A stretch of 64,000 nucleotides of DNA from Promethearchaeota archaeon (GCA_048939015.1 JBHLPW010000006.1:32001-96000), one strand, 5' to 3'; positions 8,568 to 27,379 are shown, counted from the stretch's first letter. Numbers and translations are program-made. Notes: generated by a model not told the origin, from the letters alone.

Positions 8568-8655
8568 CCTATTACTTTTATAAATATCTACCACAAATTT
8601 ATACTATATTGATAATTCTTAAATCCAAAAAAAAGAATAAGATTTAAATTAGAAT

Positions 8656-11130
8656 TTATTCTGGAGTTCCTCGTTTTTTCATAAAGATATAGATACCAGC
8701 GATTACTGCGACTCCTCCGACTATAGACATAACGACTATAACTATAATAATGGTTGGATCTATTCCACCAGCAGGGATACTTTTAGTAATTGTTACTTCT
8801 TCAAACGTGAGATTTCCTAACGTATCATTCGCATAAAACGTAATGGTTATTGAACCTTCAGATAAAGCAGCCCATGCTGCTTGATCAATAGTACTATTCG
8901 TAGTAATATCAAATGTTGTTAAACCTCCATCAAGAGAATACCATATTGAGTCCAAGTGGTCATCTGTAACTGTAATTACGAAATCGGGGGCAGTAGTACC
9001 AAATTCGCTTCCAGCAGAAGGTGAATTGATTGTAATAGTTGGAGCTTGAGTGTCTTTTTCTATGCTTAACTCAGCAGATCCAATATTTCCTATTAGATCT
9101 GAAGCATAAACTGTGAAAGTAATACTACCGTCAGATATAGCATCCCACACAGATTGATCAATAGTTCCAGTAAATTCGGTAAATATGTAGTTATGTAATC
9201 CTCCATCTAGAGAATACCACGTTTCAACCAAATATACATCAGTTATTATAACATCGTAGCTTGGCGCATTGCTTTCAAATAAATCATCATCATTTGGCGA
9301 ATTAATCGTTATCTGGGGGGCACCGTCTTCTGCTATGGGTAAATAATCTATACTTCCAGCAGAACCACCGATATAGATATAGGGATCATCGACAATTCCA
9401 TCTTGTGGGGGATCATCTGGACTAGTCCAATTATCCCAGTAATTACCAATTGACGTGCTATTCCAAGTGTTATCAGTTCCATCATCAATCGCATGTATTC
9501 CATTTTCCAGAAAGAAATTTTTATAAATTGAGTTGTTATCACACCCTGAAGCAATGTGTATTCCCTGAGTATTATTATAGAAGATATTATCAATGATGTC
9601 ACTGTAATCGCAATTATTTTCTAGATAAATCCCGTCTTCTTCATTGTAATTTGCGGTGTTTCCCGTGATGTTAGTGTATTGGGATTGATGTAAATATATC
9701 CCATACCAAGTATTATAGTTAGCGGTGTTATCCGAGATCGTGTTATCATCGCAATTAGAAGCTAAATGTATTCCTCTTAAATTTTTATTTACGGTGTTTC
9801 CCGAGAGGGTGTTATTATCGCAATCAAGATATAATGCTATCCCATAATAATTGGTATTTTCACTTGCGGTGTTTTCCGAGAGGATGTTATTATCGCAATT
9901 ATTTTCTAGATATATCCCGTCTTCTTCATTGTAATTTGCGGTGTTTCCCGTGATGTTAGTGTAATGGGATTGATGTAAATATATCCCGAACTGAGTATTA
10001 TTGTTTGCGGTATTTCCTGAGATCGTGTTATCATCGCAATAATCTGAATGTATTCCTCTTAAATTTTTGTTTACGGTGTTTCCCGAGAGGGTGTTATTAT
10101 CGCAATCATGATATAATTCTATCCCATAATAATTAGTATTTTCACTTGCGGTGTTTCCCGAGATGGTGTTATCATCGCAGTTGGTTTCTAAACGGATTCC
10201 GTCATCTTCATTGTAGTTTGCAGTGTTATCCGAGATCGTGTTATTATTGCAATTAGTAGATAACCATATCCCATGATCGTCATTGTAGTTTGCGATGTTT
10301 CCCATGATGTTAGTGTAATTGGAGTGACTTAAATATATCCCGAAATGAGTATTATCGTTTGCGGTGTTTCCCGAGATCGTGTTATCATCGCAATAATTTA
10401 AAGTTATCCCATACCCAGTATTATCGTTTGCGGTGTTTCCCGAGAGGGTGTTTCTAGAGCAATAAGAATCTAAAGTTATTCCATAATTGTTGAGGCTTGC
10501 GTTATTTTCCGAGATGGTGTTATCATCGCAGTTGGTATCTAAATATATACCTGTATCATCATTATTATTTGCGGTGTTTCCCGAGAGGGTGTTATTACTG
10601 CAATCAGTAGATAACCATATCCCAATATTGTTGAGGCTTGCGTTGTTTCCCGCGATTATATTATCTTGACCACCGTTCAAATATATTCCAAAATAATTGT
10701 TATATATTTGATTATCTATTATTTGTCCATTAGTCACATTATCTAATCTAAGCCCTCCGAAGCCACCTAGCAGCATATCTTTTAATGTACAATTCCTGAC
10801 GGCAAAATATTTTCTTGAATTGGATATCATCAGGCAATCACCTAGCCCTGGTGAGAGAAAAGTTGAATCTTTTATCACATAGGGGTATTCCTTTGTACCG
10901 TCCCCTTCAGTGCACCAAGGTTGAGTTCTTGCCCATGCCCAATTGCCAAAGTTTGATCCATTAAACGGAAGGGTATCATCAATCCATATCCCAATATAAG
11001 TACCTGAAGTCTTTGGATTCTCAATGATAGGTTGATAATTACTACTTAAATTAAAGTTAAAATTAATAATTAAAGGAAAAACAAGCCCAATTATTAATAA
11101 AATCACTAACTTTTTTATATTGGATTTCAA
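8656..11130 (-). CDS. NosD/CASH parallel beta-helix repeat surface protein with two Ig-like domains and C-terminal TM anchor
   Basis: Signal peptide, about 18 GIYL...C..N.ISGNTA..N repeats, WYSLDGG Ig-like domains, TM helix followed by KKRG. TTG start. Confidence 0.88.
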   Translation of the reverse strand: MKSNIKKLVILLIIGLVFPLIINFNFNLSSNYQPIIENPKTSGTYIGIWIDDTLPFNGSNFGNWAWARTQPWCTEGDGTKEYPYVIKDSTFLSPGLGDCLMISNSRKYFAVRNCTLKDMLLGGFGGLRLDNVTNGQIIDNQIYNNYFGIYLNGGQDNIIAGNNASLNNIGIWLSTDCSNNTLSGNTANNNDDTGIYLDTNCDDNTISENNASLNNYGITLDSYCSRNTLSGNTANDNTGYGITLNYCDDNTISGNTANDNTHFGIYLSHSNYTNIMGNIANYNDDHGIWLSTNCNNNTISDNTANYNEDDGIRLETNCDDNTISGNTASENTNYYGIELYHDCDNNTLSGNTVNKNLRGIHSDYCDDNTISGNTANNNTQFGIYLHQSHYTNITGNTANYNEEDGIYLENNCDNNILSENTASENTNYYGIALYLDCDNNTLSGNTVNKNLRGIHLASNCDDNTISDNTANYNTWYGIYLHQSQYTNITGNTANYNEEDGIYLENNCDYSDIIDNIFYNNTQGIHIASGCDNNSIYKNFFLENGIHAIDDGTDNTWNSTSIGNYWDNWTSPDDPPQDGIVDDPYIYIGGSAGSIDYLPIAEDGAPQITINSPNDDDLFESNAPSYDVIITDVYLVETWYSLDGGLHNYIFTEFTGTIDQSVWDAISDGSITFTVYASDLIGNIGSAELSIEKDTQAPTITINSPSAGSEFGTTAPDFVITVTDDHLDSIWYSLDGGLTTFDITTNSTIDQAAWAALSEGSITITFYANDTLGNLTFEEVTITKSIPAGGIDPTIIIVIVVMSIVGGVAVIAGIYIFMKKRGTPE
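9600..10660 (-). repeat. Intragenic tandem repeats (~69-72 bp units, higher-order ~285-bp unit) encoding beta-helix rungs
   Basis: Recurrent ttgcggtgtttcccgaga motif. The block cccgtcttcttcattgtaatttgcggtgtttcccgtgatgttagtgta occurs at 9631 and 9916. Confidence 0.8.
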
Positions 11131-11415: not shown

Positions 11416-11883
11416 CTACTCAGGAATAATAATCGAGTGATCTTCTTTTATTCGGTCTAAGACAATCTCTGTCTTGACTTCCTCAACTCCAGGAAGGTTG
11501 CGAAGTGTTTCTATAAGACCCATGGAGTCTGAATGATCTAGACATTTAGCCATTATGAACAAGGGATATTCTCCAGTGACCACATAAGCATACTTGATTT
11601 TTTCCATCTTTTCAATCTCGTTTTTAACATCCTCTAAGGGATTTGTTGCATTTACTCTCAGTGATGCCATTACCATTTCACGATATCCCAATTGGCGACA
11701 ATCAATCAACGCAACATACTTTTTAATCAATTCTTTCTCAAGTCGTTGAATACGTGCTCTTATCGCAGTAGCACTCTTATTAGTTTGGTGAGCAATTTCT
11801 CGGATAGTTATTTTTGCATCTTCCTGCAACAATTCGAGAATTTGTCTGTCTATATCATCTATAGTTCCATTTGTTATAACCAT
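11416..11883 (-). CDS. Lrp/AsnC family transcriptional regulator
   Basis: DDIDRQILELLQEDAK HTH, RIQRLEK, C-terminal RAM domain with VTGEY. Confidence 0.93.
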   Translation of the reverse strand: MVITNGTIDDIDRQILELLQEDAKITIREIAHQTNKSATAIRARIQRLEKELIKKYVALIDCRQLGYREMVMASLRVNATNPLEDVKNEIEKMEKIKYAYVVTGEYPLFIMAKCLDHSDSMGLIETLRNLPGVEEVKTEIVLDRIKEDHSIIIPE

Positions 11884-12178
11884 TAGAATAAACCTTTTTT
11901 TCCATATAGTAGCAATTTATAATTTATTAGTTTTTTATTAGTTTCTAACTCTCAAATAAAAAAGATTTTTCTTTACTTTTCTATAAGAATTACAAGCTTA
12001 TAATTTTTTTCACTACAATTTTATATTTCTATAGTTTTGTTTGTTTAATAAATCATATGTTTATAGAAAAAAAAACTATAGTTTATATATCACTTTGTAT
12101 TTTTTATCTATAACTGATATTGTTCATAATTAAATGAAATATCAAGTGAAAAAAAAATAAATAAAAAAACTAAAAAAA
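11884..12178. promoter_or_regulatory. Divergent promoter region between lrp and the tusA-dsr-hdr cluster
   Basis: Very AT-rich intergenic region. TATA-like tttatatat near 12082, preceded by an A-tract. Inverted pair ctatagtttt (12030) / aaaactatag (12072). Confidence 0.45.
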
Positions 12179-12412
12179 GTGAAAAAAATGGCTGTTAAAA
12201 CACTTGATTATACTGGATTGAAATGTCCGATGCCAGTGTTGAAAACTAAAAAGGAATTAAGAAGTTTGGTTTCTGGAGATGTAATAGAAGTTATCGCTGA
12301 TGATGTCGGCGCCAAAAAAGATATTCCAGCTCTTCTTAACAAGATTGGTGACGAATTAGTAGAGCTTCGAGAAGATAATGGAAATTTAACTTTTGTCATT
12401 AAAAAAGCGTAA
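12179..12412 (+). CDS. tusA: Sulfurtransferase TusA family protein
   Basis: LDYTGLKCPMP motif. The likely start is ATG 12188. Confidence 0.92.
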   Translation: MKKMAVKTLDYTGLKCPMPVLKTKKELRSLVSGDVIEVIADDVGAKKDIPALLNKIGDELVELREDNGNLTFVIKKA

Positions 12413-12429
12413 AATACGTTATACGGAGT

Positions 12430-12810
12430 ATGGATATTAATATGTCTAAATATGTTTTCTTTATTAGCACAGAGCCTTATAAATATCAAGCAGTAGATTC
12501 TCTGATAGAAATAGGTAAAGCTGCAATAAAAAAGGGGCATGAAATTACGGGTATATTTTTCTTTGGAACTGGTGTCTATAATCTTAAAAAGGATATTAGT
12601 TGCGGAAGTACTCTAAGAAACATTCCTGAAAAAATTGAGAAATTTTCTAAAGAGAATAATATTCGCGTTGCTGGATGTAGTACATGGGTAAGTATAACAG
12701 GGCTGAAAGAACCAGAATTCATTGAAGGAGCATCTGAAGAAGGTTTAGGGGACTTTTCAAATTGGGCGATTGGGGCTGATAAACTAATAGTATTTGGAGC
12801 AGGAGGTTAG
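12430..12810 (+). CDS. dsrE: DsrE/TusD family sulfur relay protein
   Basis: PY...A, GH.I..IFF.G.GV, active-site-equivalent Cys in AGCSTW, GL.DF...D..I.F. Confidence 0.82.
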   Translation: MDINMSKYVFFISTEPYKYQAVDSLIEIGKAAIKKGHEITGIFFFGTGVYNLKKDISCGSTLRNIPEKIEKFSKENNIRVAGCSTWVSITGLKEPEFIEGASEEGLGDFSNWAIGADKLIVFGAGG

Positions 12811-12815
12811 GTATT

Positions 12816-13184
12816 ATGGTAGAATCTGTGGTAATAATAAGTGATCAATCTCCTATTGGACGAAATTCTGCTGTTGAAGTTATTAGAATTGGTTCAGGAT
12901 TCACTGCACTTGGAGAATTCATTGATTGTAAAATTGTATTTATGGGGGATGCTGTGTATCTATTCAATAAAAATTGCGATCCTGAGGTGGTAGGAATGGA
13001 TTCTTTAGCAGAAGTATTAGAAATGGCTGATTTATCAGATTTAGAAGTAAATATTATTGAATCTGCTTTACAAGATGCGGGATTAACAAAAGAAGATATG
13101 ATTGACTATGAAAATTTGAAATTCATTGGATACGATGAACTAACAGATTTGATTGCTAATGCAGATGTGTCTTTTAGATATTAG
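12816..13184 (+). CDS. dsrF: DsrF/TusC family protein
   Basis: SP.G...A.E..R and VFMGDAVY motifs. Positioned between dsrE and dsrH. Confidence 0.8.
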   Translation: MVESVVIISDQSPIGRNSAVEVIRIGSGFTALGEFIDCKIVFMGDAVYLFNKNCDPEVVGMDSLAEVLEMADLSDLEVNIIESALQDAGLTKEDMIDYENLKFIGYDELTDLIANADVSFRY

Positions 13185-13200
13185 AGGAGGTTAGAAAAAG

Positions 13201-13542
13201 ATGTCAGAAAATCTTGATATGATATATTTGTTTGGATATAGCGGATTAACAGGAAGTCAATTAGAGAGATTATTACCTATTTTAAAAAGTCAAATTAAAA
13301 AGAACACAAAACTTGGATTAGTTTTAATTCATGATGGCGTTATCGGGATTACAACAAAGGGAAAGATGCCAAAAGAACTGGAAGAAATTCTCAGTTTAGA
13401 TGTTGAATTATTTGCTATGAAATCAGATATGAAAGCACGTGGTATTGCTCCTGAATATGTACATGACAAAATTAAAGCAATAGATTATGATGACCTTATA
13501 GATGTCATTGATACTACACCAAAAGTGATATCTTGGATGTAG
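13201..13542 (+). CDS. dsrH: DsrH/TusB family protein
   Basis: LIHDGV, D..ARG and IDYD.LID....K.ISW signatures. Confidence 0.85.
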   Translation: MSENLDMIYLFGYSGLTGSQLERLLPILKSQIKKNTKLGLVLIHDGVIGITTKGKMPKELEEILSLDVELFAMKSDMKARGIAPEYVHDKIKAIDYDDLIDVIDTTPKVISWM

Positions 13543-13653
13543 GAGGACAAGAAAACAAAATTCAAAAAATTTTTTTGAAAAATCCTGGGTTAAACCAGAA
13601 AAATTAAACTATATATAACAAAAAAAAGGAAATTTCCAAAAAAAAACAAAAAA

Positions 13654-14088
13654 GTGGTAAATATGGCTGAAGATGCTGAAACAATAAACTTTATTGTAAA
13701 GGATAAGTCATTTGAGAAGTTTGCGATGATGGCTATCCTTGGTTCAACTGGTGACGCAATGGATATGAAAATGAATTTTTTCTTTACCTTTTGGGGTTTG
13801 AACTTATTAACCAAAAAGTTTAAACCTAAAGTTGCTGGAATGCCTACTCCTATGAAAGGTATGGGAGCAAAAATTTTCACAAAAAGGATGAAAAAGTTTG
13901 GAATTGAAGATCCATGGGCTTTAATTAAAGATGGTGTTGAAAACGGTAATTTAAAATTATATCCATGTCAAATGACAATGGATTTAATGGGTATTAAAGC
14001 TGAAGATATAATTGATTTCGCAGAACCACCGGTTGGAGCAGCTTCATTCTTAGAAATGAGCAATGGAGGCAGAATAGTCTCATTATAA
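13654..14088 (+). CDS. DsrE/DsrF/DrsH-like (DsrE2-type) sulfurtransferase
   Basis: FFTFWGL, PCQMTMDLMG and VGAA.FL motifs. Confidence 0.85.
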   Translation: MVNMAEDAETINFIVKDKSFEKFAMMAILGSTGDAMDMKMNFFFTFWGLNLLTKKFKPKVAGMPTPMKGMGAKIFTKRMKKFGIEDPWALIKDGVENGNLKLYPCQMTMDLMGIKAEDIIDFAEPPVGAASFLEMSNGGRIVSL

Positions 14089-14131
14089 ATTAAATTTTAA
14101 TAAATTTTTTTTTTATTTTTTAACAAAAAAA

Positions 14132-14698
14132 GTGATGATAATGTCTGATGTAAAAGAAGAACACCGTGAATTTAAAACGGATGATGATTTTGATCAAGAA
14201 TTTTTTAAAAGTATAGAGAGAAGATCAAATATCTGGCAGTGCATCCAATGTGGTACATGCACAGCGAGCTGTGAAAGTGGAAGATGGACTGCTTTAAAAA
14301 CTCGTTCAATTGTAAGAAAAGTGGTATTAGGAGACCTTTCAGTGCTAAGGGACCCTGATATTTGGTTATGTACAACATGTTATCAATGTTATGAGCGATG
14401 TCCACGTGATGTAAGACCTACTGATGTAATTATGGAGTTAAGAAATTACGCTACTAAATTAGGTAATATTTCTCCTAACCATAGAGCGGTTGTAGGTTAT
14501 TTAAAGAATTTTGGACATGCTGTACCAATTAATGATGAAGTAAGAAAAAGAAGAGTCGATTTAGGACTAGAAGAATTACCTCCTACTGCGTTTAAATTTA
14601 AGCAAGAGGGGGATGATAAAGATTTAAAGAATATTGAAGAATATATGTTTAATTTACCTCCAGTTAAGGAGGATAAAAAAGAAAAGGAGGAGGCATAA
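14132..14698 (+). CDS. hdrC: Heterodisulfide reductase subunit C
   Basis: CIQCGTCTASC, IWLCTTCYQCYERCPR and GHAVPI. Confidence 0.93.
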   Translation: MMIMSDVKEEHREFKTDDDFDQEFFKSIERRSNIWQCIQCGTCTASCESGRWTALKTRSIVRKVVLGDLSVLRDPDIWLCTTCYQCYERCPRDVRPTDVIMELRNYATKLGNISPNHRAVVGYLKNFGHAVPINDEVRKRRVDLGLEELPPTAFKFKQEGDDKDLKNIEEYMFNLPPVKEDKKEKEEA

Positions 14699-14700
14699 AA

Positions 14701-15618
14701 TTGGTTAAAGAAAACACATTTGCGTTCTTTTTAGGGTGTATAATGCCTAATCGATATCCTGCGATCGAGAAATCAACGAAATTTGTCATGGATAAATTAG
14801 GATATGAACTCTTAGATATGGAAAGAGCAACTTGTTGTCCTGCTCCAGGAGTTTTCCGTTCTTTCAATAAATTTGATTGGATGGTGGCAGCTGCAAGAAA
14901 TCTTTGTATTGCTGAAAAATTAGATGCTGATATTTTAACAGTTTGTAATGGCTGTTTTGGCACACTTCAAGAAGTAAATAAACACCTTAAAGAAAACGAA
15001 GAACATCGTGAAATGGTAAACGAAAAACTCAAATTACTGGGAGACTATGAATTTAAAGGAACGATTAATGTACGCCATGTAGCTGAAGTTTTGGGTTATG
15101 AAATTGGACCATGGGGAATTGAAGATCATATTGTTAGAAAATTAAATCTTAAAGCGGCGATTCATTATGGGTGTCATTTCTTAAAGCCTACCAGAATTAG
15201 GGAAATTGAAAGTTCTGAAGGTCCAACAATAATTGAAGATTTTATTGAAGTATTAGGAGTTGAATCGGTACGATTTAAAGAACAGCTTACATGCTGTGGT
15301 GCAGGTGGAGGGGTAAAAGCATATTCTGGTGATGCAAGTATGACAATTTTCGGTGAGAAAATGAAAAACATCGATGAAGTAAAACCAGATATAATCTTAG
15401 ATATCTGTCCATTTTGTCATTTACAATTTGAAACAGGCCAAGATTATTTAAATAAAAACAAAGGCTGTAATTATGATTATCCTGTAATTCATATCTCACA
15501 ACTCGTTGCCTATTGTATGGGAATGGATCAAGAATTTATTGGTCTTCAATATCAGTTAATGGGACAGGAGTTTATATTTGGAGGAGAAGAATTAAATAAA
15601 GAGGAGGAGGTTGCTTAA
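14701..15618 (+). CDS. hdrB: Heterodisulfide reductase subunit B
   Basis: Two CCG domains: GC..CCPAPG..CNGC and GCH..CCGAGGG..CPFC. TTG start after a GGAGG SD. Confidence 0.94.
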   Translation: MVKENTFAFFLGCIMPNRYPAIEKSTKFVMDKLGYELLDMERATCCPAPGVFRSFNKFDWMVAAARNLCIAEKLDADILTVCNGCFGTLQEVNKHLKENEEHREMVNEKLKLLGDYEFKGTINVRHVAEVLGYEIGPWGIEDHIVRKLNLKAAIHYGCHFLKPTRIREIESSEGPTIIEDFIEVLGVESVRFKEQLTCCGAGGGVKAYSGDASMTIFGEKMKNIDEVKPDIILDICPFCHLQFETGQDYLNKNKGCNYDYPVIHISQLVAYCMGMDQEFIGLQYQLMGQEFIFGGEELNKEEEVA

Positions 15619-17646
15619 ATGACAGTAAAAGATGAAAAAGTAACCGATTCAAGTAATATTAGTGATAATGAAAAAGAAGAAGAACCTAAAATAGGCGTTT
15701 TTATATGTCATTGTGGTCATAATATCGCAGGGACAGTTGATGTGGCTAAAGTCGCAGATTATGCTAAAAATTTGCCTAATGTGGTTAAAGCGGAGCATTA
15801 TATGTTTATGTGTTCTAAACCAGGAGTTCAAATGCTCAAAGATTCTATTGAAGAATTAGGAGTTAATCGTAGTGTAGTAGCCAGTTGCTCGAAAAACCAA
15901 CATGGCAGAACTTTTGCTAAAGCAATTGAAGAGATGGGACTTAATAAGCACAGACATCAACAAGTAAATATTAGAGAATTTAATAGTTGGGTACATCAGA
16001 AAGAGAAAGATAAAGCAACCAATAAAGCAATGAAGTTAGTGGAAGCTGGAGTAAATAGGGCAAGGAAACTAGAGGATGTTGAAACTCGAAGAGTCCCAAC
16101 TACTAAAGCCGCGTTAGTTATTGGTGCTGGAATTGCTGGACTTCGTGCTTCTTATGATCTAGCCGAATTAGGGATACCAGTTTATTTAATTGAGAGACTT
16201 TCAACTATCGGAGGGCATATGACTCAATTAAATAAGACATTTCCAACACTTGAGTGTCCACAGTGTTCAATAAGTCCTTTGACTAATGGAGTTGCAAATC
16301 ACCCACTTGTTGAGCTTTATACAAACGCTCAGATAAAAAACGTACAAGGATCGATGGGTAATTTTGAAGTTGAGGTTGAAATAAAACCTCGATACGTTAA
16401 AGATAATTGTACATCTTGTGGTGAATGTGCTGCTCATTGTCCTGTGGAAGTCCCTAGTGAATGGGACAGTGGAATGTCAATGAGAAACGCAATTTATAAA
16501 GCTTATCCGCAAGCAATTCCCGCTACGTATGTGAGAGACAAGAAAAATTGTATTGAATGTAATACGTGTGTTAATGTTTGTCCCGTTCAGGCTGTAGATT
16601 TTTCAATGCAAGCAGAAACTAAAACTTTTAAAGTTGGTTCTATTGTTGTTGCTGCAGGTTATGATGAGTATGACCCATCAGAAATAGAACCATACCATTA
16701 TGGTCAAGAAGGATTTGAAGATGTTATAACTCAACTCAAATTAGAAAGGATGTTAGCTCCAGGTTCTCTTACTAACAGTCAAGTACTTCGTCCTTCTGAT
16801 GGTAAAATCCCCAAAAGTGTCGTAATGATACAATGTGTAGGAAGTAGAAATGATCAAGTAGGAAATCAATATTGTACAGGAGTTTGTTGTAAATTTGCAA
16901 TTAAGAATGCTCGAATTGTAAAAGAAATGTATCCAGATACAGATGTTACAATTTGCTATATTGATGTGAGAACTCCTGGTTTAAACTTTGAAGAATTATA
17001 TAAATCTGCACAAGAAGTGGGTGTAAGATTCATTAGAGGACGTCCATCAGAGATCCTAAGAGATCCTGTGTCTGGAGAATTAAAGGTAATTGTTGAAGAT
17101 ACATTAAGTCAAACTCCTTTAAAACTAAAAGCAGATATGGTAGTATTATCAGCAGCGATGGTACCTCCCGAAGGTATCGGTCCATTAGGATCAAAGTTAC
17201 AGGTTCTACGCTCAAAAGAAGGATTTTTAAAAGAATTCCATATTAAAATGAATCCGACTTTAAGCAGTAAAGGAGGAATATTTTTAGCGGGAGCAATTCA
17301 AGGTCCTAAAGATATTTCTGAAAGTGTTGCTCAAGCAGGTAATGCTGCAGCTATAGCTGCTGCTCCATTAGTTAAGGGCTATATTGAAAAGGAAATGTTA
17401 ATTCCTTCAGTAGATTTTGAATTATGCGTAAGATGTAGTTTATGTAAAACTGTATGTGCTCCAGCAGCGATAGAAATAAATGATGATGGAACGCCTATGA
17501 TTAATGAAGTTGCTTGTAAATCATGTGGTATGTGCATGCCTGTATGTCCTACGGGAGCAATTCAATTATTAAATTTTAGTGATGATCAATTGTTAGATGA
17601 AATAATCGCAATATCAGGAGGAGGTGCTGTATGCGAAAATGAGTGA
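15619..17646 (+). CDS. hdrA: Heterodisulfide reductase subunit A
   Basis: CHCG.NI, NIRE..SW.H, GAGIAG, KTFPT.EC..C, inserted 2[4Fe-4S] domain, QCVGSR..CT.VCC, C-terminal ferredoxin. Confidence 0.95.
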   Translation: MTVKDEKVTDSSNISDNEKEEEPKIGVFICHCGHNIAGTVDVAKVADYAKNLPNVVKAEHYMFMCSKPGVQMLKDSIEELGVNRSVVASCSKNQHGRTFAKAIEEMGLNKHRHQQVNIREFNSWVHQKEKDKATNKAMKLVEAGVNRARKLEDVETRRVPTTKAALVIGAGIAGLRASYDLAELGIPVYLIERLSTIGGHMTQLNKTFPTLECPQCSISPLTNGVANHPLVELYTNAQIKNVQGSMGNFEVEVEIKPRYVKDNCTSCGECAAHCPVEVPSEWDSGMSMRNAIYKAYPQAIPATYVRDKKNCIECNTCVNVCPVQAVDFSMQAETKTFKVGSIVVAAGYDEYDPSEIEPYHYGQEGFEDVITQLKLERMLAPGSLTNSQVLRPSDGKIPKSVVMIQCVGSRNDQVGNQYCTGVCCKFAIKNARIVKEMYPDTDVTICYIDVRTPGLNFEELYKSAQEVGVRFIRGRPSEILRDPVSGELKVIVEDTLSQTPLKLKADMVVLSAAMVPPEGIGPLGSKLQVLRSKEGFLKEFHIKMNPTLSSKGGIFLAGAIQGPKDISESVAQAGNAAAIAAAPLVKGYIEKEMLIPSVDFELCVRCSLCKTVCAPAAIEINDDGTPMINEVACKSCGMCMPVCPTGAIQLLNFSDDQLLDEIIAISGGGAVCENE

Positions 17647-18091
17647 ATGTGAATATATTGAACCAGAAGTACTTGAAAAGATGGAAAATATTGTAGTTTT
17701 TATGTGTAATGAATGTGGACAAGGTTCAGCAAACACAGCAGGAGTGGCTCGAATGGCATATAATCCAGCAATTCGAATAGTTCGAGTCCAATGTACAGGT
17801 CAAGTTGGTCCTATTCAGATTATGGATGCTTTAAGTAACGGAGCGGATTCTGTTGCGTGTGTTGGTTGTTGTTTAGGAGCTTGTCATTTCTTTAATGGCA
17901 ATATTTTATCCATGCATAGAATAAAATTAATGAAAAAGTTATTTAAGGAGTTAGGTTATAGTGATCAGTTTGTTAATCAATATACTTCGAGAGCTGCTGA
18001 AGGAGAAACGGCAGTCGGAGATTTTGAAGATATTGTGGAGCGATTAGCAACTGCAATTAGAGAGGAGGGGACTTTCAAAGATGGATGTTAG
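17639..18091 (+). CDS. mvhD: MvhD-type [2Fe-2S] subunit (Hdr electron-input adaptor)
   Basis: FMCNEC, RVQCTG, GAD...GC..G.CHF..GN. Overlaps the hdrA stop. ATG 17639 preferred over GTG 17624. Confidence 0.88.
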   Translation: MSECEYIEPEVLEKMENIVVFMCNECGQGSANTAGVARMAYNPAIRIVRVQCTGQVGPIQIMDALSNGADSVACVGCCLGACHFFNGNILSMHRIKLMKKLFKELGYSDQFVNQYTSRAAEGETAVGDFEDIVERLATAIREEGTFKDGC

Positions 18092-19322
18092 AGTATTTCA
18101 GTTTAATGGATGTAATAAATGCTTTAATGAGACGATACTTTTAAAAGGAGAATCCAAATATAAAGTAGAATTTATACAAGATCCTCAAAACTGGAAAGAA
18201 CAAAAGACTGAGGTATCAATTATCACTGGATTTTTACTACCAGAGAATAAAGAAATTTTAAATAAGATTAAAGCAAATTCAGAAAAAGTAATTGCATATG
18301 GAAATTGTACTACAACAGGAGGGATTTTTGCTCTTGCTAATCAAAAAAGTCATGATGTAACTCCATTAAAAAACATAATCGAAGATTCAATTAATATTAA
18401 TGGATGTTTAGGGGAAATTGAGGAATTAAAGCTAGAGATTGAAGATAATGATCTCCCAAAATTAAAGAATCTATGTATAGTATGTGGAAGACGGAAAACA
18501 TGTGATTACTTAGACGATGTAAAACGTCAAATTGAATTAGGAGATACTGAGACATGTTTTAATGATCTTGGGTATCTTTGTAATGGTTTTATATCAAAAG
18601 AATGCAAAGAACGATGTATTGATTATAATGCCCCATGTAGAGGTTGTAAACCAATTATAGAACGTTCTGGAATCAGAATGTTAGGAATGTTTGGAACTCT
18701 TATGGGAAATATTGAAGTAGCGACTGAACACTCTGAAAAGGGAGCAACTGATAAATTAGCAGATAGGGATGATGATATAACGGAAAGATTGCCAGATATA
18801 GTAGGAAATTTCTTTAGATTTACTTTACCAACATCAGGATTACCAAAAGGCAGAATTCCTTCAAATGGTAATATTTTAGATGACGTTTTTACTGGAAGAC
18901 TTATTGAAGAATTACCTTTGATTTCAGGATTATTAGGAGGAGATCATTCAATCTCACTAACATTAAAAATAATTGAAACTTACGAGGAAGCAAATGAAAT
19001 TGAAGTAAGCGAAAAAACAAAAAATTATCGAAGTCAATTGCTAAAATTGGAAGATCAACTCCAAAAGGCGATTCAAAGTAAAGATCTGGAAGAATATAAG
19101 AAAATTACTGAAGAAATTCGTAAAATTGCGGGAAATATGAATTTATCTAATTTAACTTATGGAGGATTCAGGTCTCAAATTGATGATAATGATGATTTTG
19201 AAGAATATAAAGCCCACGTTTTTGAAGTGGTCGAAGGAACATATAAAAATGGTTCTGTTGAATTTACAATTGATCCAGTTGGCATTGTAAAACAAATTAA
19301 AATTAAAGAGGGATATGCATGA
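18081..19322 (+). CDS. MvhG/FrhG-like [NiFe]-hydrogenase small-subunit homolog with long C-terminal extension
   Basis: GCNKC, YGNC...GG, NGC, CIVC and CF...G.LC.G......C...C......CRGC cluster ligands, followed by about 150 extra residues. Confidence 0.75.
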   Translation: MDVRVFQFNGCNKCFNETILLKGESKYKVEFIQDPQNWKEQKTEVSIITGFLLPENKEILNKIKANSEKVIAYGNCTTTGGIFALANQKSHDVTPLKNIIEDSININGCLGEIEELKLEIEDNDLPKLKNLCIVCGRRKTCDYLDDVKRQIELGDTETCFNDLGYLCNGFISKECKERCIDYNAPCRGCKPIIERSGIRMLGMFGTLMGNIEVATEHSEKGATDKLADRDDDITERLPDIVGNFFRFTLPTSGLPKGRIPSNGNILDDVFTGRLIEELPLISGLLGGDHSISLTLKIIETYEEANEIEVSEKTKNYRSQLLKLEDQLQKAIQSKDLEEYKKITEEIRKIAGNMNLSNLTYGGFRSQIDDNDDFEEYKAHVFEVVEGTYKNGSVEFTIDPVGIVKQIKIKEGYA

Positions 19323-21787
19323 GTTTTGAATTATTAAGAGAAGAAATAGTGGATGCTGGTCTTTGTCAAGGATGTGGTTTATGTGCTGGTTCATGTAAAC
19401 ATATTGAAATGGATCTAAGGCGTCCAACTTTAAAAGATTATTGTATATTGGAAAGAGATGGAAAAGATTGTGGCAAATGCTATCAAAATTGTCCTCAAGT
19501 AATCCAGAAAAAATTTAAAGAAAAGCAGCCTCTTGCGATTTACTCATTAAGAAGTAAAGACCCAGCTATTTTGAATAAAGCTTCAAGTGGAGGCTTTGTA
19601 ACTACTTTTGCTAAAGAATTGTTGGAGAATGAATCTCTTAAAGAAATAGTAATGGTTCAAGAAGAAGACGAGAAACCTACAGCTGAAATAGTTTCTGATC
19701 CTAATGACGTAGTTCAAAAGGCTGGGGTTATTTATGGTAGGTCTGGAGTACTGCAGAAATTAGTAGAACTTACCGGTGAAACATTTGAGCCGATTGGCAT
19801 AGTTGGTGTACCCTGTGAAATGCGTGGTGCTGCTGAACTTGAAGAAGATATGAATCGAGAAATTTTAAAAATTGGATTGTTTTGTAGTTCCCAAATGAGA
19901 ACTGAACAAACAGACAAGGGTTTAGTATGTTCTCCATGTTGTAATGGTTGTCCCTCTGGGGTCAATGCTCAAGGATATATATCATTGATACGTCAAGGAA
20001 AGTATCAAGATGCTGTTGATTTAATTAGAGAAAGTAATCCCCTTCCGTCTATATGTGGAAGAATTTGTACAAATGAGTGCGAGCATGGTTGTACTCTAAT
20101 TGGAGACGACCATCCTGTCGCGATTCGTGAATTAAAGAAATTTGTTACTGAATGGGAAATTGAAAGAGCTAAAAACACTTCAAAACAAAAAGCTAAATTA
20201 CCCAAAAATGCTAAAAAAGTAGCAATTATAGGATCTGGACCAGCAGGATTAACAGCGGCATATTATTTAAGGAGAATGGGTTATGCACCAACAATTTTTG
20301 AGAAGACAGATCAAACAGGAGGAATGCTAAGATTTGGTGTACCGCAGTTTCGATTACCTAATTATGTATTAGATTATGATGTAGGTAGGATCGTAGATTC
20401 TGGAGTTAAGGTTGTACTTAATAAGCCTTTAGGGCCTGAAATGTCTATTGATGATTTAAAGAATGATGGATTTGAAGCCATATTTATTGCAACTGGACAA
20501 TATAAACCCCGTACCTTACACTTAGAAGGAGAAGATTTACCAAATGTGCATGTAGCAATTCATTTTCTTATGGATAGAAAGTATCGATACTGGGAAAATA
20601 AAGAAGAATTTAAAGGCAAAACTTTAGGAATAATCGGAGGTGGACCAGTCGCAGTTGATGTTGCACAAACAGCTCTTAGATTAGGTGCAGATAAAGTTCA
20701 CCTTGTAGATATAATGTCAAAAGAACAACTCGAATTAGTACTACGAGAAATACCTGAAAATGAAATGGAATTTATGGAATATCACTTTACGACCTCAACT
20801 TCTAAAATCACTCAGAATAAAGATATAAAATTAGTTCTAAATTCTTATAAGATTGAATGGGGTAAACCTGATAAAAGTGGGAGGAAACCATTAATTAAAA
20901 TTGAAGAATCCGATTATCAGATACCAGTAGATTCCATTGTAATTGCAGTTGGTCAAGCAGTAGATTTTGAACAAATAGATGCTGCTACCAATAATATATT
21001 GGAAAAAGAACGAAATAGAATCAAAGTAAACGAGGTTACATTTGAAACAAATATACCTGGTGTTTTTGCTGGTGGAGATATAATCAGTAATTCTAAGGCT
21101 GTAGCCATTGCTGCTATAGCTCATGGAAAAGAAGCGGCAATTTCAATAGACAGATACTTAAAGGGAGAGAACTTAATGGAAGGAAGATACAAGATAAAGA
21201 ATTCCTTTTTCACTGGACCTAAAAAACCTCCAAAAGACTATTCCTTGAAACCAGATACTTTAGAAGAAGCAACTGAAGAAATTAATTGGAGTTTTGAGGA
21301 AATTGATCAAATGTTCAATGAAGATATGGCTTTACAGGAGGCTAGAAGATGTCTAAGTTGTAATCACTTCTGTTCTCATTGTCAAGATTTCCCTGCAATA
21401 TATTCAGATCTGACAGCGGGTGAAGTAGGATCACAAGAAGGCTATACTACAGTGGTAGTTTGGACAGAAAGAGGAAAAAATTTTGTTGAAGAAGCGATTA
21501 AAAAGGGATTATTCGAACAAGGAAAAGTCGATGATGAAGCATTGAAAAATGCTATAAATCTAAAATCAAAACGTGAATTGATGAATTTTGAAAAAACCCC
21601 AAGACAACAAGTATTAAACTATGTATCACTTCAAGGACCTAGTACTATTACAGATATCGTAAACCGAACAGGTCTTGAACCTAAAAAAGCAAGATATGAA
21701 GCGCTCCGATTAGTTCAATTAATGCAATTAGAGATGAAAGCTGAACCTGATATGGAGGAGCCAATATTTTCTATTATATGTGATTAA
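19319..21787 (+). CDS. Fusion: ferredoxin + FrhB/FdhB (F420-binding) domain interrupted by a GltD/NfnB-type FAD/NAD(P) oxidoreductase + C-terminal winged helix
   Basis: CQGCGLC..C; FrhB motifs SSGG.VT, VG.PC and IGLFC; GltD motifs PC..GCP..NP.P..CGR.C, GSGPAG, GGG.VA.D, FAGGD and EA.RCL.C; FrhB then resumes (C..C.DF....D...G.VG..G.T.V...T.RG); HTH-like tail. Confidence 0.85.
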   Translation: MSFELLREEIVDAGLCQGCGLCAGSCKHIEMDLRRPTLKDYCILERDGKDCGKCYQNCPQVIQKKFKEKQPLAIYSLRSKDPAILNKASSGGFVTTFAKELLENESLKEIVMVQEEDEKPTAEIVSDPNDVVQKAGVIYGRSGVLQKLVELTGETFEPIGIVGVPCEMRGAAELEEDMNREILKIGLFCSSQMRTEQTDKGLVCSPCCNGCPSGVNAQGYISLIRQGKYQDAVDLIRESNPLPSICGRICTNECEHGCTLIGDDHPVAIRELKKFVTEWEIERAKNTSKQKAKLPKNAKKVAIIGSGPAGLTAAYYLRRMGYAPTIFEKTDQTGGMLRFGVPQFRLPNYVLDYDVGRIVDSGVKVVLNKPLGPEMSIDDLKNDGFEAIFIATGQYKPRTLHLEGEDLPNVHVAIHFLMDRKYRYWENKEEFKGKTLGIIGGGPVAVDVAQTALRLGADKVHLVDIMSKEQLELVLREIPENEMEFMEYHFTTSTSKITQNKDIKLVLNSYKIEWGKPDKSGRKPLIKIEESDYQIPVDSIVIAVGQAVDFEQIDAATNNILEKERNRIKVNEVTFETNIPGVFAGGDIISNSKAVAIAAIAHGKEAAISIDRYLKGENLMEGRYKIKNSFFTGPKKPPKDYSLKPDTLEEATEEINWSFEEIDQMFNEDMALQEARRCLSCNHFCSHCQDFPAIYSDLTAGEVGSQEGYTTVVVWTERGKNFVEEAIKKGLFEQGKVDDEALKNAINLKSKRELMNFEKTPRQQVLNYVSLQGPSTITDIVNRTGLEPKKARYEALRLVQLMQLEMKAEPDMEEPIFSIICD

Positions 21788-21826
21788 ATAATAAATAAAT
21801 TTAATAAATACCAAGAGGTAAAGATA

Positions 21827-22066
21827 ATGAAATACGATATGGAATTAAACGTCTGCGGGTTAGTATGTCCTGTCCCAGCTTTAAAAACTAAAAAACAGCT
21901 CATGAAAATGAGACCTGGCACAGTTTTAAAAGTTATAACAGACTATAAACCTGCTAGTGAATCTGTTCCCCGTGATTTAGCAAAACAAACTAAGCATAAA
22001 CACTTAGGAACGGAATTTCTCGAAGACGATGAACAATGGTATATCTATTTTGAAGCTGTAAAATAA
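21827..22066 (+). CDS. tusA: Sulfurtransferase TusA family protein (second copy)
   Basis: LNVCGLVCPVP..KTKK motif with a GAGGT SD upstream. Confidence 0.9.
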   Translation: MKYDMELNVCGLVCPVPALKTKKQLMKMRPGTVLKVITDYKPASESVPRDLAKQTKHKHLGTEFLEDDEQWYIYFEAVK

Positions 22067-22231: not shown

Positions 22232-22984
22232 ATGCAGGAAGTAGAAAATATATATCAAGATGCTTATTACAGAACAAAAAACTTCAAAGGGTTATTCATT
22301 CACGATATTTCAAATTTATTTCAGATAATCAGCAATTCTATTGAGTTTTGTGAATCAATGTTAAAAAATGAAGTAAAAACAGATGAAATTTTAGAGTTTT
22401 TTTATATGATTGCGAAACAGATAGACCGTGGTAAGAAATTGATTAGAAATGTTAGAAATCTTTCAGAAATGGAAGAATATGAAATGCCTTTAGTACCTGT
22501 TGAAATATTTTCTACTTTGGAGAATGTTTTTAGTTTTACTTATGCAAGTTTTCCTAAAAAGGAAATTGAAATTAATATGTACCCTAATCATGGAAACCTT
22601 TATATTATGGCAAATGAGCTACTGAGTGAAGTATTTGAAAATATAATTATAAATTCTATTTATTACAACAGAAATAGAGTTGTTAAAATTGAAGTTGTAG
22701 CTTCTATCATTGAAATTCATCATAAGAATTATGTAAAGATCGAGTTTAAGGATAATGGTATTGGTATCGATAATAATCGAAAACAGGTGATATTTCAAGA
22801 AACTCATCTAAAGAACAAGCAATCTAATGGTATGGGAATTGGTCTATCATTGGTTGCTAGAGTAATTGAATTATACGGTGGAGAAATTAGGGTAAAAGAT
22901 CATATAGAGGGAGATTCCACGAAAGGGAGCAATTTCATAATCTTGATTCCATTAATTAAAAAAAAAAAAGAAGGTAATGTGTAA
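22232..22984 (+). CDS. Histidine kinase (HisKA + HATPase, no obvious sensor domain)
   Basis: HDISN H-box, N-box ENIIIN, DNGIGI and GMGIGL. Confidence 0.88.
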   Translation: MQEVENIYQDAYYRTKNFKGLFIHDISNLFQIISNSIEFCESMLKNEVKTDEILEFFYMIAKQIDRGKKLIRNVRNLSEMEEYEMPLVPVEIFSTLENVFSFTYASFPKKEIEINMYPNHGNLYIMANELLSEVFENIIINSIYYNRNRVVKIEVVASIIEIHHKNYVKIEFKDNGIGIDNNRKQVIFQETHLKNKQSNGMGIGLSLVARVIELYGGEIRVKDHIEGDSTKGSNFIILIPLIKKKKEGNV

Positions 22985-23829: not shown

Positions 23830-23978
23830 AAACCTAAAAAATAACTTGTTTTTTTTACATTTTTTTAAATTAACTAATTTTAAGACGAAATCTATAGAAG
23901 GATACTATTGAAAATTATTATTAAATTTAAAACACTATAAATATCTAACACTCATTAATTATGAGAAGGGATAAATAA

Positions 23979-27362: not shown

Positions 27363-27379
27363 TTTAAATCAGATTATTA

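Follow-up and report, generated by a model that had tools for sequence, protein, structure and literature searches.

A candidate sulfur-carrier-linked Hdr complex of methanogen type in Promethearchaeota

What does a methanogen-type Hdr act on in an Asgard archaeon when its genes stand between those of sulfur carriers? The question is raised by a stretch of a Promethearchaeota genome (GCA_048939015.1, JBHLPW010000006.1:32001-96000; 64,000 nucleotides, hereafter the window), in which Pfam and NCBIfam models identify a divergent lrp and twelve co-oriented, closely spaced genes at 11416-22066. The gene string reads tusA-dsrE-dsrF-dsrH-dsrE2B-hdrC-hdrB-hdrA-mvhD-mvhG'-frhB::nfnB-tusA, with intergenic spacers from tusA1 to tusA2 of 17, 5, 16, 111, 43, 2, 0, -23, -11, -4 and 39 bp. 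Each gene in the list and coordinates of the original prediction was confirmed with these model collections:

11416-11883, minus strand: Lrp/AsnC-family regulator, divergent from the operon (HTH_AsnC-type and AsnC_trans_reg matches)
12179-12412, plus strand: TusA1 sulfur carrier (Pfam TusA, 1.5e-24; active Cys16 in KCPMP)
12430-12810, plus strand: DsrE (Pfam DsrE; TIGR03012/03010/03011 set with DsrF and DsrH; Cys83 in GCSTW)
12816-13184, plus strand: DsrF-like protein (Pfam DsrE; same TIGR03012/03010/03011 set)
13201-13542, plus strand: DsrH (Pfam DsrH; same TIGR03012/03010/03011 set)
13654-14088, plus strand: DsrE2B-type single-Cys carrier (Pfam DrsE_2, 5.6e-23; Cys105 in LYPC)
14132-14698, plus strand: HdrC, two cubane clusters (TIGR03290)
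14701-15618, plus strand: HdrB, catalytic subunit with two CCG domains (TIGR03288)
15619-17646, plus strand: HdrA, full-length bifurcating-type flavoprotein (N-terminal, inserted and C-terminal Fe-S domains)
17624-18091, plus strand: MvhD/FlpD, [2Fe-2S] connector between input arm and HdrA (Pfam FlpD, 6e-32; VhuD, 3e-26)
18081-19322, plus strand: MvhG', 413 aa (Pfam Oxidored_q6)
19319-21787, plus strand: FrhB::NfnB, 822 aa (FrhB_N, Fer4_20, Pyr_redox_2 and FrhB_C)
21827-22066, plus strand: TusA2 sulfur carrier (Pfam TusA, 1.1e-17; Cys14 in VCPVP)

The reductase core is of the methanogen type and not of the sHdr type, as had been predicted. HdrC (174.3 bits on TIGR03290, cut-off 160) and HdrB (373.9 bits on TIGR03288, cut-off 345.15) both exceed the curated cut-offs of the CoB-CoM Hdr equivalog models. 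HdrB aligns over its full length with the methanogen chains 9sfi_C and 5odc_B at about E 1e-92 to 1e-93, and its five-Cys CCG motifs are both intact (C13-x31-CC-x35-CxxC and C158-x39-CC-x36-CxxC). Residues 22-666 of HdrA align with methanogen HdrA (9sfi_A, E 2.2e-190), whereas sHdrA (6tjr_A) aligns with residues 340-584 only (E 2.4e-38). The closest HdrB homologues that are not orthologues are encoded in plain hdrACB-mvhDGA clusters, which lack carrier genes. The top NCBIfam model for HdrA is HdrA2 (740 bits, short of its curated cut-off of 1100), and the HdrA2B2C2 model is also the top one for MvhD (99 bits). In HdrA2B2C2 of Methanosarcina acetivorans, F420H2 is the bifurcation donor. That enzyme is built on an HdrA-MvhD fusion, unlike the separate Asgard genes, and the Asgard operon adds MvhG' and FrhB::NfnB subunits and has another substrate context.

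The input arm departs from the methanogen Mvh pattern. MvhG' residues 1-255, with 13 Cys, match MvhG (5odc_E, profile E 1.5e-39), and residues 263-413 of its AlphaFold model match hydrogenase large subunits (6qgt_A, Z 13.5, rmsd 2.5, 148 aligned; 4kl8_L, Z 12.9; 5aa5_C, Z 12.7); the last Cys is residue 189. Promethearchaeota are the only source in which this protein was found. The gene first described as mvhG-like therefore has its MvhG part but is not MvhG alone, and the structural matches indicate a small subunit fused to a Cys-free [NiFe] large-subunit remnant (~263-413). The predicted FrhB-GltD fusion likewise contains both parts, though nested by domain order (FrhB_N 75-145, Fer4_20 190-283, Pyr_redox_2 299-603, FrhB_C 667-739) and not joined end to end. 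Residues 201-617 match 9n5u_A (a chain named NfnA) at 4e-94 as well as 4ylf_B and 5jca_L, both of NfnB type; the two ends match 8rja_E and 7np8_A, both of the FrhB family, and the two dinucleotide motifs (GSGPAG, GGGPVA) are retained. Judged by sequence, a complete NfnB/GltD NADPH-FAD-2[4Fe-4S] module is inserted between the N and C halves of an FrhB/FdhB-family F420-type flavoprotein. This fused form occurs in 58 of 76 relatives and an unfused FrhB (about 350-400 aa) in 9 of 76.

Compared with the methanogen MvhAGD-HdrABC and VhuAGD-HdrABC complexes (PDB 5ODC, 9SW2, 9SFI), HdrA, HdrB, HdrC, MvhD and the MvhG portion are clearly homologous and share the cluster-binding cysteines, so the bifurcating core is presumably shared too. 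Unlike in methanogens, all that is left of the Asgard large subunit is a Cys-free stump of ~150 residues with no H2 site, and the operon adds FrhB::NfnB and six sulfur-carrier genes. A closer precedent for the arm comes from the F420H2- or formate-driven ElpABC-HdrABC and FdhAB-MvhD-HdrABC complexes (PMC12350162; PDB 8RVU-type, 7BKB): in the solved Elp-Hdr, a dead subunit, an FrhB homologue and MvhD pass F420H2 electrons to HdrABC (PMC12350162). The Asgard arm shares with both an FrhB/FdhB-family flavoprotein, a dead catalytic-subunit relative as scaffold and an MvhD connection to HdrA. However, its scaffold derives from [NiFe] hydrogenase (MvhG plus MvhA stump) and not from FdhA, and its FrhB holds the nested NADPH module, whereas Elp-Hdr acts on CoM-S-S-CoB in methanogens and works without sulfur carriers.

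Among the carriers, the CPMP motif of TusA1 is invariant in the 17 orthologues compared, as are DsrE Cys83 and Cys105 of the DsrE2B-type carrier among their orthologues. DsrH contains no Cys; DsrE, DsrF and DsrH together are predicted to form a DsrEFH/TusBCD-type carrier complex. The closest solved relative of the DsrE2B-type carrier is Sulfolobus DsrE2B (2qs7_A, 3e-17), and the Thorarchaeota loci lack this gene. TusA2 is the most conserved carrier, with 58-62% identity even in Thorarchaeota, and its gene follows frhB in every locus reaching that far. Its second Cys (Cys10) is not conserved, which excludes an intramolecular disulfide as a general feature. Further TusA copies are encoded elsewhere in the genome.

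Chance proximity does not explain the arrangement, which recurs in 76 species-level Asgard loci: a search of 185,579 species with a marker protein recovered it in Promethearchaeota only, including the cultured P. syntrophicum MK-D1 and L. ossiferum. The complete 12-gene string is present in 40 of the 76 loci, and tusA1/dsrE in all 43 that have more than 6.5 kb of upstream flank. Thorarchaeota retain the carrier linkage in a changed order, with dsrEFH after tusA2, and tus/dsr genes adjoin hdr in every relative examined, such rearrangements included. Some relatives carry an hdrC2B2 pair inside the operon, after tusA2. Essentially every locus with sufficient flank also has an lrp, which in MK-D1 and L. 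ossiferum sits between dsrE2 and hdrC. Within the genus, too, the cluster is an accessory element, carried by 31 of 53 genomes. In MK-D1, the expression values of all 13 orthologues (182-348) fall among those of other listed metabolic genes.

The genome is 94.9% complete. MCR (MCR_alpha) was not found in it, nor was ComA, the marker searched for CoM synthesis; F420 biosynthesis is represented by CofE and CofG/CofH. The absence of dsrC and dsrAB from the window extends to this genome, where no sulfite reductase, no DsrK and no DsrC/TusE, the usual DsrEFH acceptor, was found. Similarly, no GcvH/LbpA gene lies near any hdr gene, the two GcvH homologues being located in a gcvTHP cluster and beside unrelated genes. 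The claim that hydrogenase is lacking holds in cis, with no mvhA in the window, but not for the genome, which encodes one Vhu-type [NiFeSe] hydrogenase (contig C95). This enzyme is apparently intact, with a RICGIC motif in VhuA and D-C-U-L-S-C-A-A-H in a separate 49-codon ORF. It adjoins a second hdrCB (hdrC2B2), a second dsrEFH and yeeE, with no hdrA or mvhD beside it. At least 12 HdrA-MvhD paralogues and several HdrB paralogues are also encoded.

The DsrMK(JOP)-DsrC system is a precedent for a CCG-domain (HdrD/HdrB-like) subunit that reduces protein-bound sulfur, namely the DsrC trisulfide, and DsrEFH belongs to that setting too. Unlike it, the Asgard genome lacks DsrC, DsrK and DsrAB, and the DsrEFH acceptor would therefore be DsrE2B, TusA2 or HdrB; the enzyme predicted from the genes is soluble and bifurcating, not quinone-linked. 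Complex modelling, proposed earlier for HdrB and the carriers, supports TusA2 as a candidate direct partner: the HdrB-TusA2 pair scored 0.68 (three runs, 0.57-0.74), while the highest of 3 controls scored 0.00. In the calibration of the method, 58 of 80 solved complexes and 2 of 110 mismatched pairs attained this level. Contacts agree between runs to at least 94%, partner pLDDT is at least 89, and TusA2 residues 15-16 and 18-19, flanking active Cys14, lie in the modelled interface. The HdrB side (123-142, 164-181) is conserved no better than the rest of the protein (0.66 vs 0.75), and since the pair was modelled without HdrC, HdrA or cofactors, this site may not be free in the real assembly. 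We know of no solved HdrB-TusA complex.

With moderate confidence, we propose F420H2/NADPH-driven, bifurcating reduction of carrier-bound sulfane sulfur as the best reading of the operon; the donor, substrate, direction, relay order and bifurcation itself we infer. HdrABC, MvhD, MvhG' and FrhB::NfnB would form a soluble flavin-based electron-bifurcating complex of methanogen Hdr type with a degenerated hydrogenase arm, in which MvhG keeps three Fe-S clusters and the metal-free stump serves as scaffold only, so that hydride carriers would replace H2 as donor. Electrons would enter from F420H2 at the flavin of FrhB, from NADPH at the nested NfnB module, or from both, and would pass by way of the clusters of MvhG' and the [2Fe-2S] cluster of MvhD to the FAD of HdrA. 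There the pair would be split, the first electron reducing ferredoxin and the second travelling via HdrC to HdrB and its two non-cubane clusters. Given that MCR and ComA were not found, HdrB probably acts not on CoM-S-S-CoB but on sulfane sulfur or a disulfide bound to protein cysteines. TusA1, DsrEFH and DsrE2B may gather and hand on sulfur from polysulfide/S0, thiosulfate or cysteine, with TusA2 presenting it to HdrB and H2S being released. The sulfane/H2S potential (about -270 mV) is much lower than that of CoM-S-S-CoB (about -140 mV), and bifurcation from F420H2/NADPH to ferredoxin would therefore run near equilibrium, a limit that would be lifted if H2S were kept low or the carrier-bound couple were more positive.

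This thermodynamic margin lends some weight to a possible, though improbable, alternative, that the complex is reversible or runs in reverse. TusA/DsrE cysteines would then be a recyclable thiol/(per)disulfide couple in place of CoM-SH/CoB-SH, with inorganic sulfur not the terminal acceptor. Carrier thiols and reduced ferredoxin would be confurcated to F420 or NADP+ reduction or, with the trans-encoded Vhu hydrogenase and HdrC2B2, to H2, while other Hdr paralogues re-reduced the carriers. The MK-D1 authors proposed a confurcating, H2-evolving Asgard Mvh-Hdr, the many HdrA-MvhD and HdrB paralogues could share one redox couple, and a second hdrCB adjoins the sole hydrogenase or, in some relatives, lies within the operon. 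However, TusA and DsrE are known as single-active-Cys sulfane or thiosulfonate carriers and not as dithiol redox carriers, TusA2 has no general intramolecular disulfide, and the yeeE-type sulfur importer beside the second dsrEFH suggests that the relay takes in inorganic sulfur.

We consider it unlikely that HdrB reduces a low-molecular-weight disulfide and that the tus/dsr genes are placed here by co-regulation, serving H2S assimilation (cysteine, Fe-S), tRNA/cofactor thiolation or Hdr Fe-S supply and repair. The equivalog-level match of HdrB to CoM-S-S-CoB reductase would fit, as would the classically biosynthetic roles of TusA and TusBCD (KEGG names them so in MK-D1), the lack of an assimilatory sulfite reductase in the genome and a 2025 preprint that casts the Hdr link as reductive sulfur assimilation. 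Against this stand the linkage in 43/43 informative loci and through gene-order rearrangement, the unusually strong constraint on TusA2, its modelled binding to HdrB, the failure to find TusE/DsrC as acceptor for tRNA thiolation, and the TusA copies elsewhere for housekeeping.

An H2-driven system over two loci, with trans-encoded VhuAGU docking on the HdrA-MvhD core as in an ordinary Mvh/Vhu-Hdr, seems very unlikely. It would give the lone Vhu-type hydrogenase the HdrA and MvhD that it lacks alongside, and the 2025 preprint, which draws Hdr reducing TusA/DsrE-bound persulfides, takes H2 as donor. However, MvhG' takes the place of MvhG in the operon, with translational coupling of its gene to mvhD (11-bp overlap) and to frhB (4-bp overlap), and its conservation of 70-96% among the 120 best database relatives argues for it as the working arm. 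Moreover, many other HdrA-MvhD pairs are available to Vhu, and many genomes of the genus have the hydrogenase without the operon.

The sHdr-LbpA systems of Hyphomicrobium, Aquifex and Sulfolobales, with their TusA/DsrE3/rhodanese carriers (PMC11094781, PMC4175335), oxidise sulfane sulfur to sulfite using a short non-bifurcating sHdrA and need LbpA and lipoate-assembly genes. The Asgard cluster resembles them in its carrier genes beside Hdr-like genes and in candidate sulfur delivery to an HdrB-type subunit, but its carriers are DsrEFH and DsrE2B and not DsrE3 types. Oxidation of carrier-bound sulfane sulfur with electrons passing to NADP+ or F420 is hardly credible here, even though sHdr clusters always come with TusA and DsrE genes (PMC11094781) and the two hdrCB pairs of some relatives recall hdrC1B1A-hyp-hdrC2B2, since the cluster does not match the hallmarks of sHdr: HdrA is a 675-aa bifurcating type of which sHdrA covers only a third, MvhD is present, HdrB passes the methanogen equivalog cut-off, and neither LbpA nor lipoate-assembly genes are encoded close by.

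The system is not wholly undescribed, as first supposed, but only partly described: its genes (DSAG12_01139-01151) are included in the supplementary table of the MK-D1 paper, and the preprint sketches the Hdr link. If carrier-bound sulfane sulfur is indeed what this Hdr reduces, the complex would provide an amino-acid fermenter with a sulfur electron sink together with reduced ferredoxin, and the Asgard-only cluster gives a testable candidate for the substrate of its Hdr.

ORF listing and Pfam/NCBIfam scans of the window, which occupies positions 32001-96000 of contig C46 in an assembly of 4.86 Mb (125 contigs, 94.9% complete), bore out gene by gene the anatomy read in the original prediction, namely an operon of sulfur carrier and heterodisulfide reductase (Hdr) genes behind a divergent regulator:

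11416-11883, minus strand: lrp, an Lrp/AsnC regulator (ORF listing, Pfam/NCBIfam)
following in order, plus strand: tusA1, dsrE, dsrF, dsrH, a DrsE_2-family gene, hdrC, hdrB, hdrA and mvhD (Pfam/NCBIfam)
after mvhD, plus strand: an Oxidored_q6 gene (413 codons), an FrhB/GltD gene (822 codons) and tusA2 (Pfam/NCBIfam)

Intergenic spacers in the operon measure between -23 and 111 bp. Active cysteines are kept in the carriers (TusA1 KCPMP, TusA2 VCPVP, DsrE GCSTW, DsrE2-like protein LYPC), and DsrEFH comprises three paralogous subunits with the DsrE active cysteine present, only TusB scoring above the TusBCD equivalog cut-offs of NCBIfam. A promoter and terminator scan, uninformative because its models are bacterial, returned counts close to shuffled expectation (51 versus 50.4 and 3 versus 4.2). 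The last 85 codons of lrp are duplicated (window 8321-8575 and 11416-11670, both minus strand; 97.6% amino-acid identity) and the two 3′-end copies flank a NosD/beta-helix surface-protein gene (window 8656-11130), an arrangement that looks like the scar of an insertion or recombination beside the operon's regulator. On the other side, 3′ of tusA2 (window 22232-25370), lie genes for a histidine-kinase-like ATPase, a receiver-domain protein and a 463-aa FMN_red/flavodoxin-like protein, which are retained in the closest relatives only (loci L008, L009, L035-L038) and may represent a lineage-specific sensor and redox partner.

The cluster is a genuine, strictly conserved feature found in Asgard archaea alone. 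With the product of the Oxidored_q6 gene, here termed MvhG′, as marker, we obtained 359 database relatives, the best 120 of which are 70-96% identical, and all named relatives are Asgard. MvhG′ is encoded in 79 of 400 Asgard genomes sampled; the share is 63 of 134 genomes for the window's family and 31 of 53 for the genus, and a distant family contributes seven. Among one genome each of 185,579 species, the 76 loci recovered all belong to Promethearchaeota and none was found outside Asgard, although the two search patterns could miss very distant relatives; hosts include Promethearchaeum syntrophicum MK-D1, Lokiarchaeum ossiferum, Harpocratesius repetitus, Sigynarchaeum springense and Thorarchaeota. 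When the loci were annotated by BLAST with the proteins of the window as reference, 40 of 76 had the complete 12-gene string, and wherever the upstream flank exceeded 6.5 kb (43 loci) tusA1/dsrE were present on the same strand. The placement of tus/dsr beside hdr, first noted in the window, therefore extends to every informative locus (43 of 43) and also to Thorarchaeota, where the order is rearranged to hdrCBA-mvhD-mvhG′-frhB-tusA2-dsrEFH(-tusA1), without dsrE2. That the carrier-hdr linkage outlasts such a reordering argues more strongly than any other genomic observation that the two gene sets are functionally tied.

The 3′ end of the operon occurs in cassette variants, with an FrhB::NfnB flavoprotein of ~820 aa in 58 loci and a plain FrhB of ~350-400 aa in nine, three of which carry a second hdrCB pair (hdrC2B2) 3′ of tusA2. 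Comparison of loci L003-L007, L016, L045, L046 and L072 showed tusA2 either preceding or following hdrC2B2 where FrhB is plain (here ~380-400 aa). Both variants are present within one genus and are distributed independently of MvhG′ identity, a pattern that suggests module swapping. In MK-D1 (L027/L091), L. ossiferum (L028/L093) and Harpocratesius (L031/L099), lrp has the same orientation and is placed between dsrE2 and hdrC, where it separates the carrier genes from the redox genes; MK-D1 has an additional mirror-image hdrCBA upstream, and the Harpocratesius FrhB gene is apparently down to a 142-codon ORF.

We assigned the type of Hdr using curated HMM cut-offs and PDB comparisons. HdrB contains two complete five-cysteine CCG motifs (C13-x31-C45C46-x35-C82xxC85 and C158-x39-C198C199-x36-C236xxC239) and scores 373.9 bits against TIGR03288 (cut-off 345.15), while HdrC scores 174.3 against TIGR03290 (cut-off 160). 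Methanogen HdrB 9sfi_C is matched with an E-value of 3e-93, and solved methanogen HdrB chains at about 1e-92. Residues 22-666 of the 675-aa HdrA align with residues 3-650 of 9sfi_A (E 2.2e-190), whereas sHdrA 6tjr_A, from the sulfur-oxidising Hdr-like complex (sHdr), aligns with residues 340-584 only (E 2.4e-38). Fer4 domains are located at HdrA residues 263-325 and 598-650 (Pfam), the next gene encodes FlpD/MvhD, and HdrA and MvhD jointly match the HdrA2 model of Methanosarcina (NCBIfam). Since both cut-offs are passed and HdrA matches the methanogen protein over its full length, the operon Hdr is, on sequence criteria, methanogen-type and not sHdr; the earlier classification of HdrB and MvhD holds, and HdrB was not placed with sHdr. 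About five further mHdr-like (methanogen-type) HdrB paralogues in the genome are 30-35% identical to the operon HdrB (tblastn), which makes the operon copy the nearest to the methanogen enzyme. The two nearest non-orthologous HdrB representatives inspected belong to carrier-free clusters of the ordinary hdrACB-mvhDGA or vhuG-hdrCB-vhuA kind.

In the electron input arm, the label mvhG-like is right for positions 1-255 of MvhG′, which match nearly all of MvhG 5odc_E (E 1.5e-39), but the protein is more than MvhG, as an exhaustive structural search aligned residues 263-413 with the hydrogenase large subunit FrhA (6qgt_A; Z 13.5, rmsd 2.5 Å, 148 residues), with further large-subunit matches to 4kl8_L (Z 12.9) and 5aa5_C (12.7), and also to HycE, NuoD and MbsL. 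The AlphaFold model (mean pLDDT 68.8) has good confidence at residues 1-128 and 256-409, but the cluster-binding residues 129-255 are poorly modelled. MvhG′ is thus MvhG fused to a vestigial [NiFe] large subunit. This C-terminal stump (~150 residues with the large-subunit fold) has zero cysteines, so a Ni-Fe site is impossible; Group 3c Mvh/Vhu enzymes, in contrast, have a large subunit with RxCGxC and DPC/UxxC nickel ligands beside the small subunit, and the operon is without both motifs.

The adjoining 822-aa protein does combine the FrhB and GltD families as first described, but by nested insertion and not end to end: a complete NfnB/GltD-type module lies between the FrhB N and C halves, consisting of Fer4_20 (190-283; 2x[4Fe-4S]) and Pyr_redox_2 (299-603) with two dinucleotide folds, whose GSGPAG and GGGPVA motifs are kept. 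The module matches 9n5u_A (4e-94) and the NfnB-type chains 4ylf_B (2e-69) and 5jca_L (2e-63), and has the features of an NfnB/GltD flavoprotein; it is situated inside FrhB, and NfnA/GltB partners are absent. A search of the genome for F420 biosynthesis genes identified CofE and CofG with an adjoining CofH-like gene, making F420 availability plausible. On contig C21, an FrhB-like gene that shares 54% identity with the NfnB portion of FrhB::NfnB adjoins an HdrC-like gene (tblastn). A comparable arm is known from the solved and characterised Elp-Hdr complex, which feeds F420H2 electrons to HdrABC in nickel-starved methanogens and consists of ElpA (a truncated inactive FdhA), ElpB (an FdhB/FrhB homologue) and ElpC (an MvhD homologue) (PMC12350162). 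The operon encodes FrhB-family halves, for which F420 binding is putative, and an MvhD connector, and the partner is hydrogenase-derived, not FdhA-derived. The Asgard arm can be regarded as a hydrogenase-derived counterpart of the Elp design, by analogy and not as a member by descent.

Of the carriers, TusA2 is under the strongest constraint: every locus extending far enough encodes it, and its identity is 74-95% among the aligned Loki-type loci and ~60% in Thorarchaeota, where MvhG′ is only ~35% identical. Structure prediction for HdrB with TusA2, without cofactors, HdrC or HdrA and with 13 orthologues per alignment, points to a contact between the two: the score, which is the model's own confidence and not a measurement, had a median of 0.68 in three runs (0.57-0.74) against 0.00 for the best of three controls, a mark that in the tool's calibration 58 of 80 solved complexes attained, as did 2 of 110 mismatched pairs. 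Contact agreement between runs was at least 94% and partner pLDDT at least 89. The modelled interface brings TusA2 residues 15-30 and 50-56, immediately after active Cys14, against HdrB residues 123-142 and 164-181, a short way past the first cysteine of the second CCG motif. Interface conservation lends the model no support, since the HdrB contact residues are no better conserved than the rest (0.66 versus 0.75) and those of TusA2 only slightly better (0.84 versus 0.80). A separate idea, that TusA2 acts as a dithiol carrier like DsrC, with an intramolecular Cys10/Cys14 (CxxxC) disulfide reduced by HdrB, was dropped as a general property, since MK-D1, Sigynarchaeum, Thorarchaeota and others have Q, K or R in place of Cys10.

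We propose, giving it an even chance of being correct, that the complex couples F420H2- or NADPH-driven bifurcation to ferredoxin with the reduction by HdrB of a substrate that TusA2 presents, either sulfane sulfur or a disulfide. F420H2 and/or NADPH would be oxidised at FrhB::NfnB, and electrons would reach the HdrA flavin by way of MvhG′ and MvhD and there could be bifurcated to ferredoxin and, via HdrC, to HdrB. TusA1, DsrEFH and DsrE2B (the DrsE_2-family protein) would supply sulfur to TusA2, and H2S would be released. More tentatively, and on balance short of probable, TusA2-bound sulfane sulfur fed by DsrEFH and DsrE2B may be the native "heterodisulfide" of Asgard HdrABC. Energetics are the main weakness of this bifurcating reading. 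Sulfane/H2S couples lie well below CoM-S-S-CoB, and the reaction may thus be reversible; a confurcating mode with carrier thiols is unlikely in our view, yet the foremost alternative.

We consider it rather improbable that HdrB reduces a small-molecule disulfide while the carriers serve assimilation or maturation. DsrC/TusE (PF04358), the usual DsrEFH acceptor, whose absence from the window was noted earlier, was not found in the 94.9% complete genome either, nor was an NIR_SIR sulfite reductase. MCR_alpha (PF02249) and ComA (PF02679) were likewise not found in the 94.9% complete genome, while methanogen controls scored; judged by these two families, what CoM-S-S-CoB would require as physiological substrate appears to be lacking, an argument that is strong but not absolute. 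A further dsrEFH is located on contig C89, and on contig C95 yeeE-dsrE-dsrF-dsrH (minus strand) diverges from genes for a hydrogenase small subunit, a large subunit, HdrC and HdrB. The C95 hdrCB is the orthologue of the hdrC2B2 lying inside the operon in some relatives, so that the genome has two places where carrier and Hdr genes are neighbours, one of them including a sulfur importer.

The same contig bears on a supply of H2 in trans, which we regard as very unlikely. The observation that no hydrogenase accompanies the operon stands for the window; the genome does encode a single [NiFe] large subunit, on C95. This VhuA (26685-27992, 435 aa, RICGIC) stops before the C-terminal nickel motif, and 38 bp downstream a 49-codon ORF (C95:28030-28179) encodes ...FDCULSCAAH..., its U being an in-frame TGA presumed to specify selenocysteine. 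C95:26685-28179 (locus L002:8686-10180) is a split Vhu-type [NiFeSe] hydrogenase, the genome's only [NiFe] hydrogenase, and its small subunit is long (438 aa, 22 Cys). Co-occurrence in the genus revealed no dependency (VhuA orthologue in ~39 of 53 genomes, yeeE in 13 of 53, mvhG′ operon in 31 of 53). By tblastn, the genome also carries at least 12 HdrA paralogues, most with an adjoining MvhD, and several FrhB-like genes, which for an organism that is not a methanogen is a very large set of Hdr genes.

Oxidation in the manner of sHdr is extremely improbable: the operon shares the TusA/DsrE-family sulfur transferases (two TusA, DsrEFH and a DsrE2B-like protein), but sHdr has a short sHdrA (~340 aa) without extra ferredoxin domains, no MvhD, and linked lbpA (encoding a GcvH-like lipoate-binding protein) and lipoate-assembly genes, whereas the operon has a 675-aa HdrA with MvhD, no lbpA or lipoate-assembly genes were found within the window, and the genome's two GcvH homologues are not near hdr, one being part of a gcvT-H-P cluster on C107 and the other flanked by MptE-like and NAD-kinase genes on C66.

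The original interpretation was reasonable and overstated in two points, the lack of a hydrogenase and the description of the cluster as undescribed. Supplementary tables of the MK-D1 paper contain the orthologues DSAG12_01139-01144 and 01151 in the genome annotation list and also tabulate DSAG12_01145-01150 under "Heterodisulfide reductase complexes", with expression values of 182-348 for DSAG12_01139-01151, while its text discusses the confurcating MvhADG-HdrABC alone. A 2025 preprint depicts persulfides bound to TusA/DsrE as being reduced by Hdr, albeit with H2 as electron donor. Our literature search found no other paper joining Asgard, Hdr and TusA. The cluster builds on known kinds, Mvh/Elp-Hdr and sulfur-relay-coupled Hdr, and is not categorically new.

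Asgard archaea lack methanogenesis, and their genomes are rich in Hdr paralogues, which the literature treats as "MvhADG-HdrABC" with an unknown thiol/disulfide or an assumed CoM/CoB partner. Of these Hdr sets, the operon is the one with the HdrB nearest to the methanogen enzyme and the one in constant company of sulfur carriers, which provides a concrete, testable substrate hypothesis, and the presence of the operon in the cultured MK-D1 and L. ossiferum makes biochemical and transcript tests feasible now. MvhG′ presents a hydrogenase turned pure electron-transfer module, paralleling ElpA in methanogens and NuoB/NuoD in complex I. If the proposed mechanism is true, the closest prokaryotic relatives of eukaryotes would conserve energy by flavin-based bifurcation with a carrier persulfide as high-potential acceptor, using a former hydrogenase that has become an electron wire blind to hydrogen and accepting F420H2 or NADPH. 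Hdr would then have a substrate of a new class, the sulfur side of hydrogen-sulfur syntrophy models would rest on a direct molecular footing, and models of Asgard syntrophy and eukaryogenesis would have to add sulfur-dependent energy conservation.
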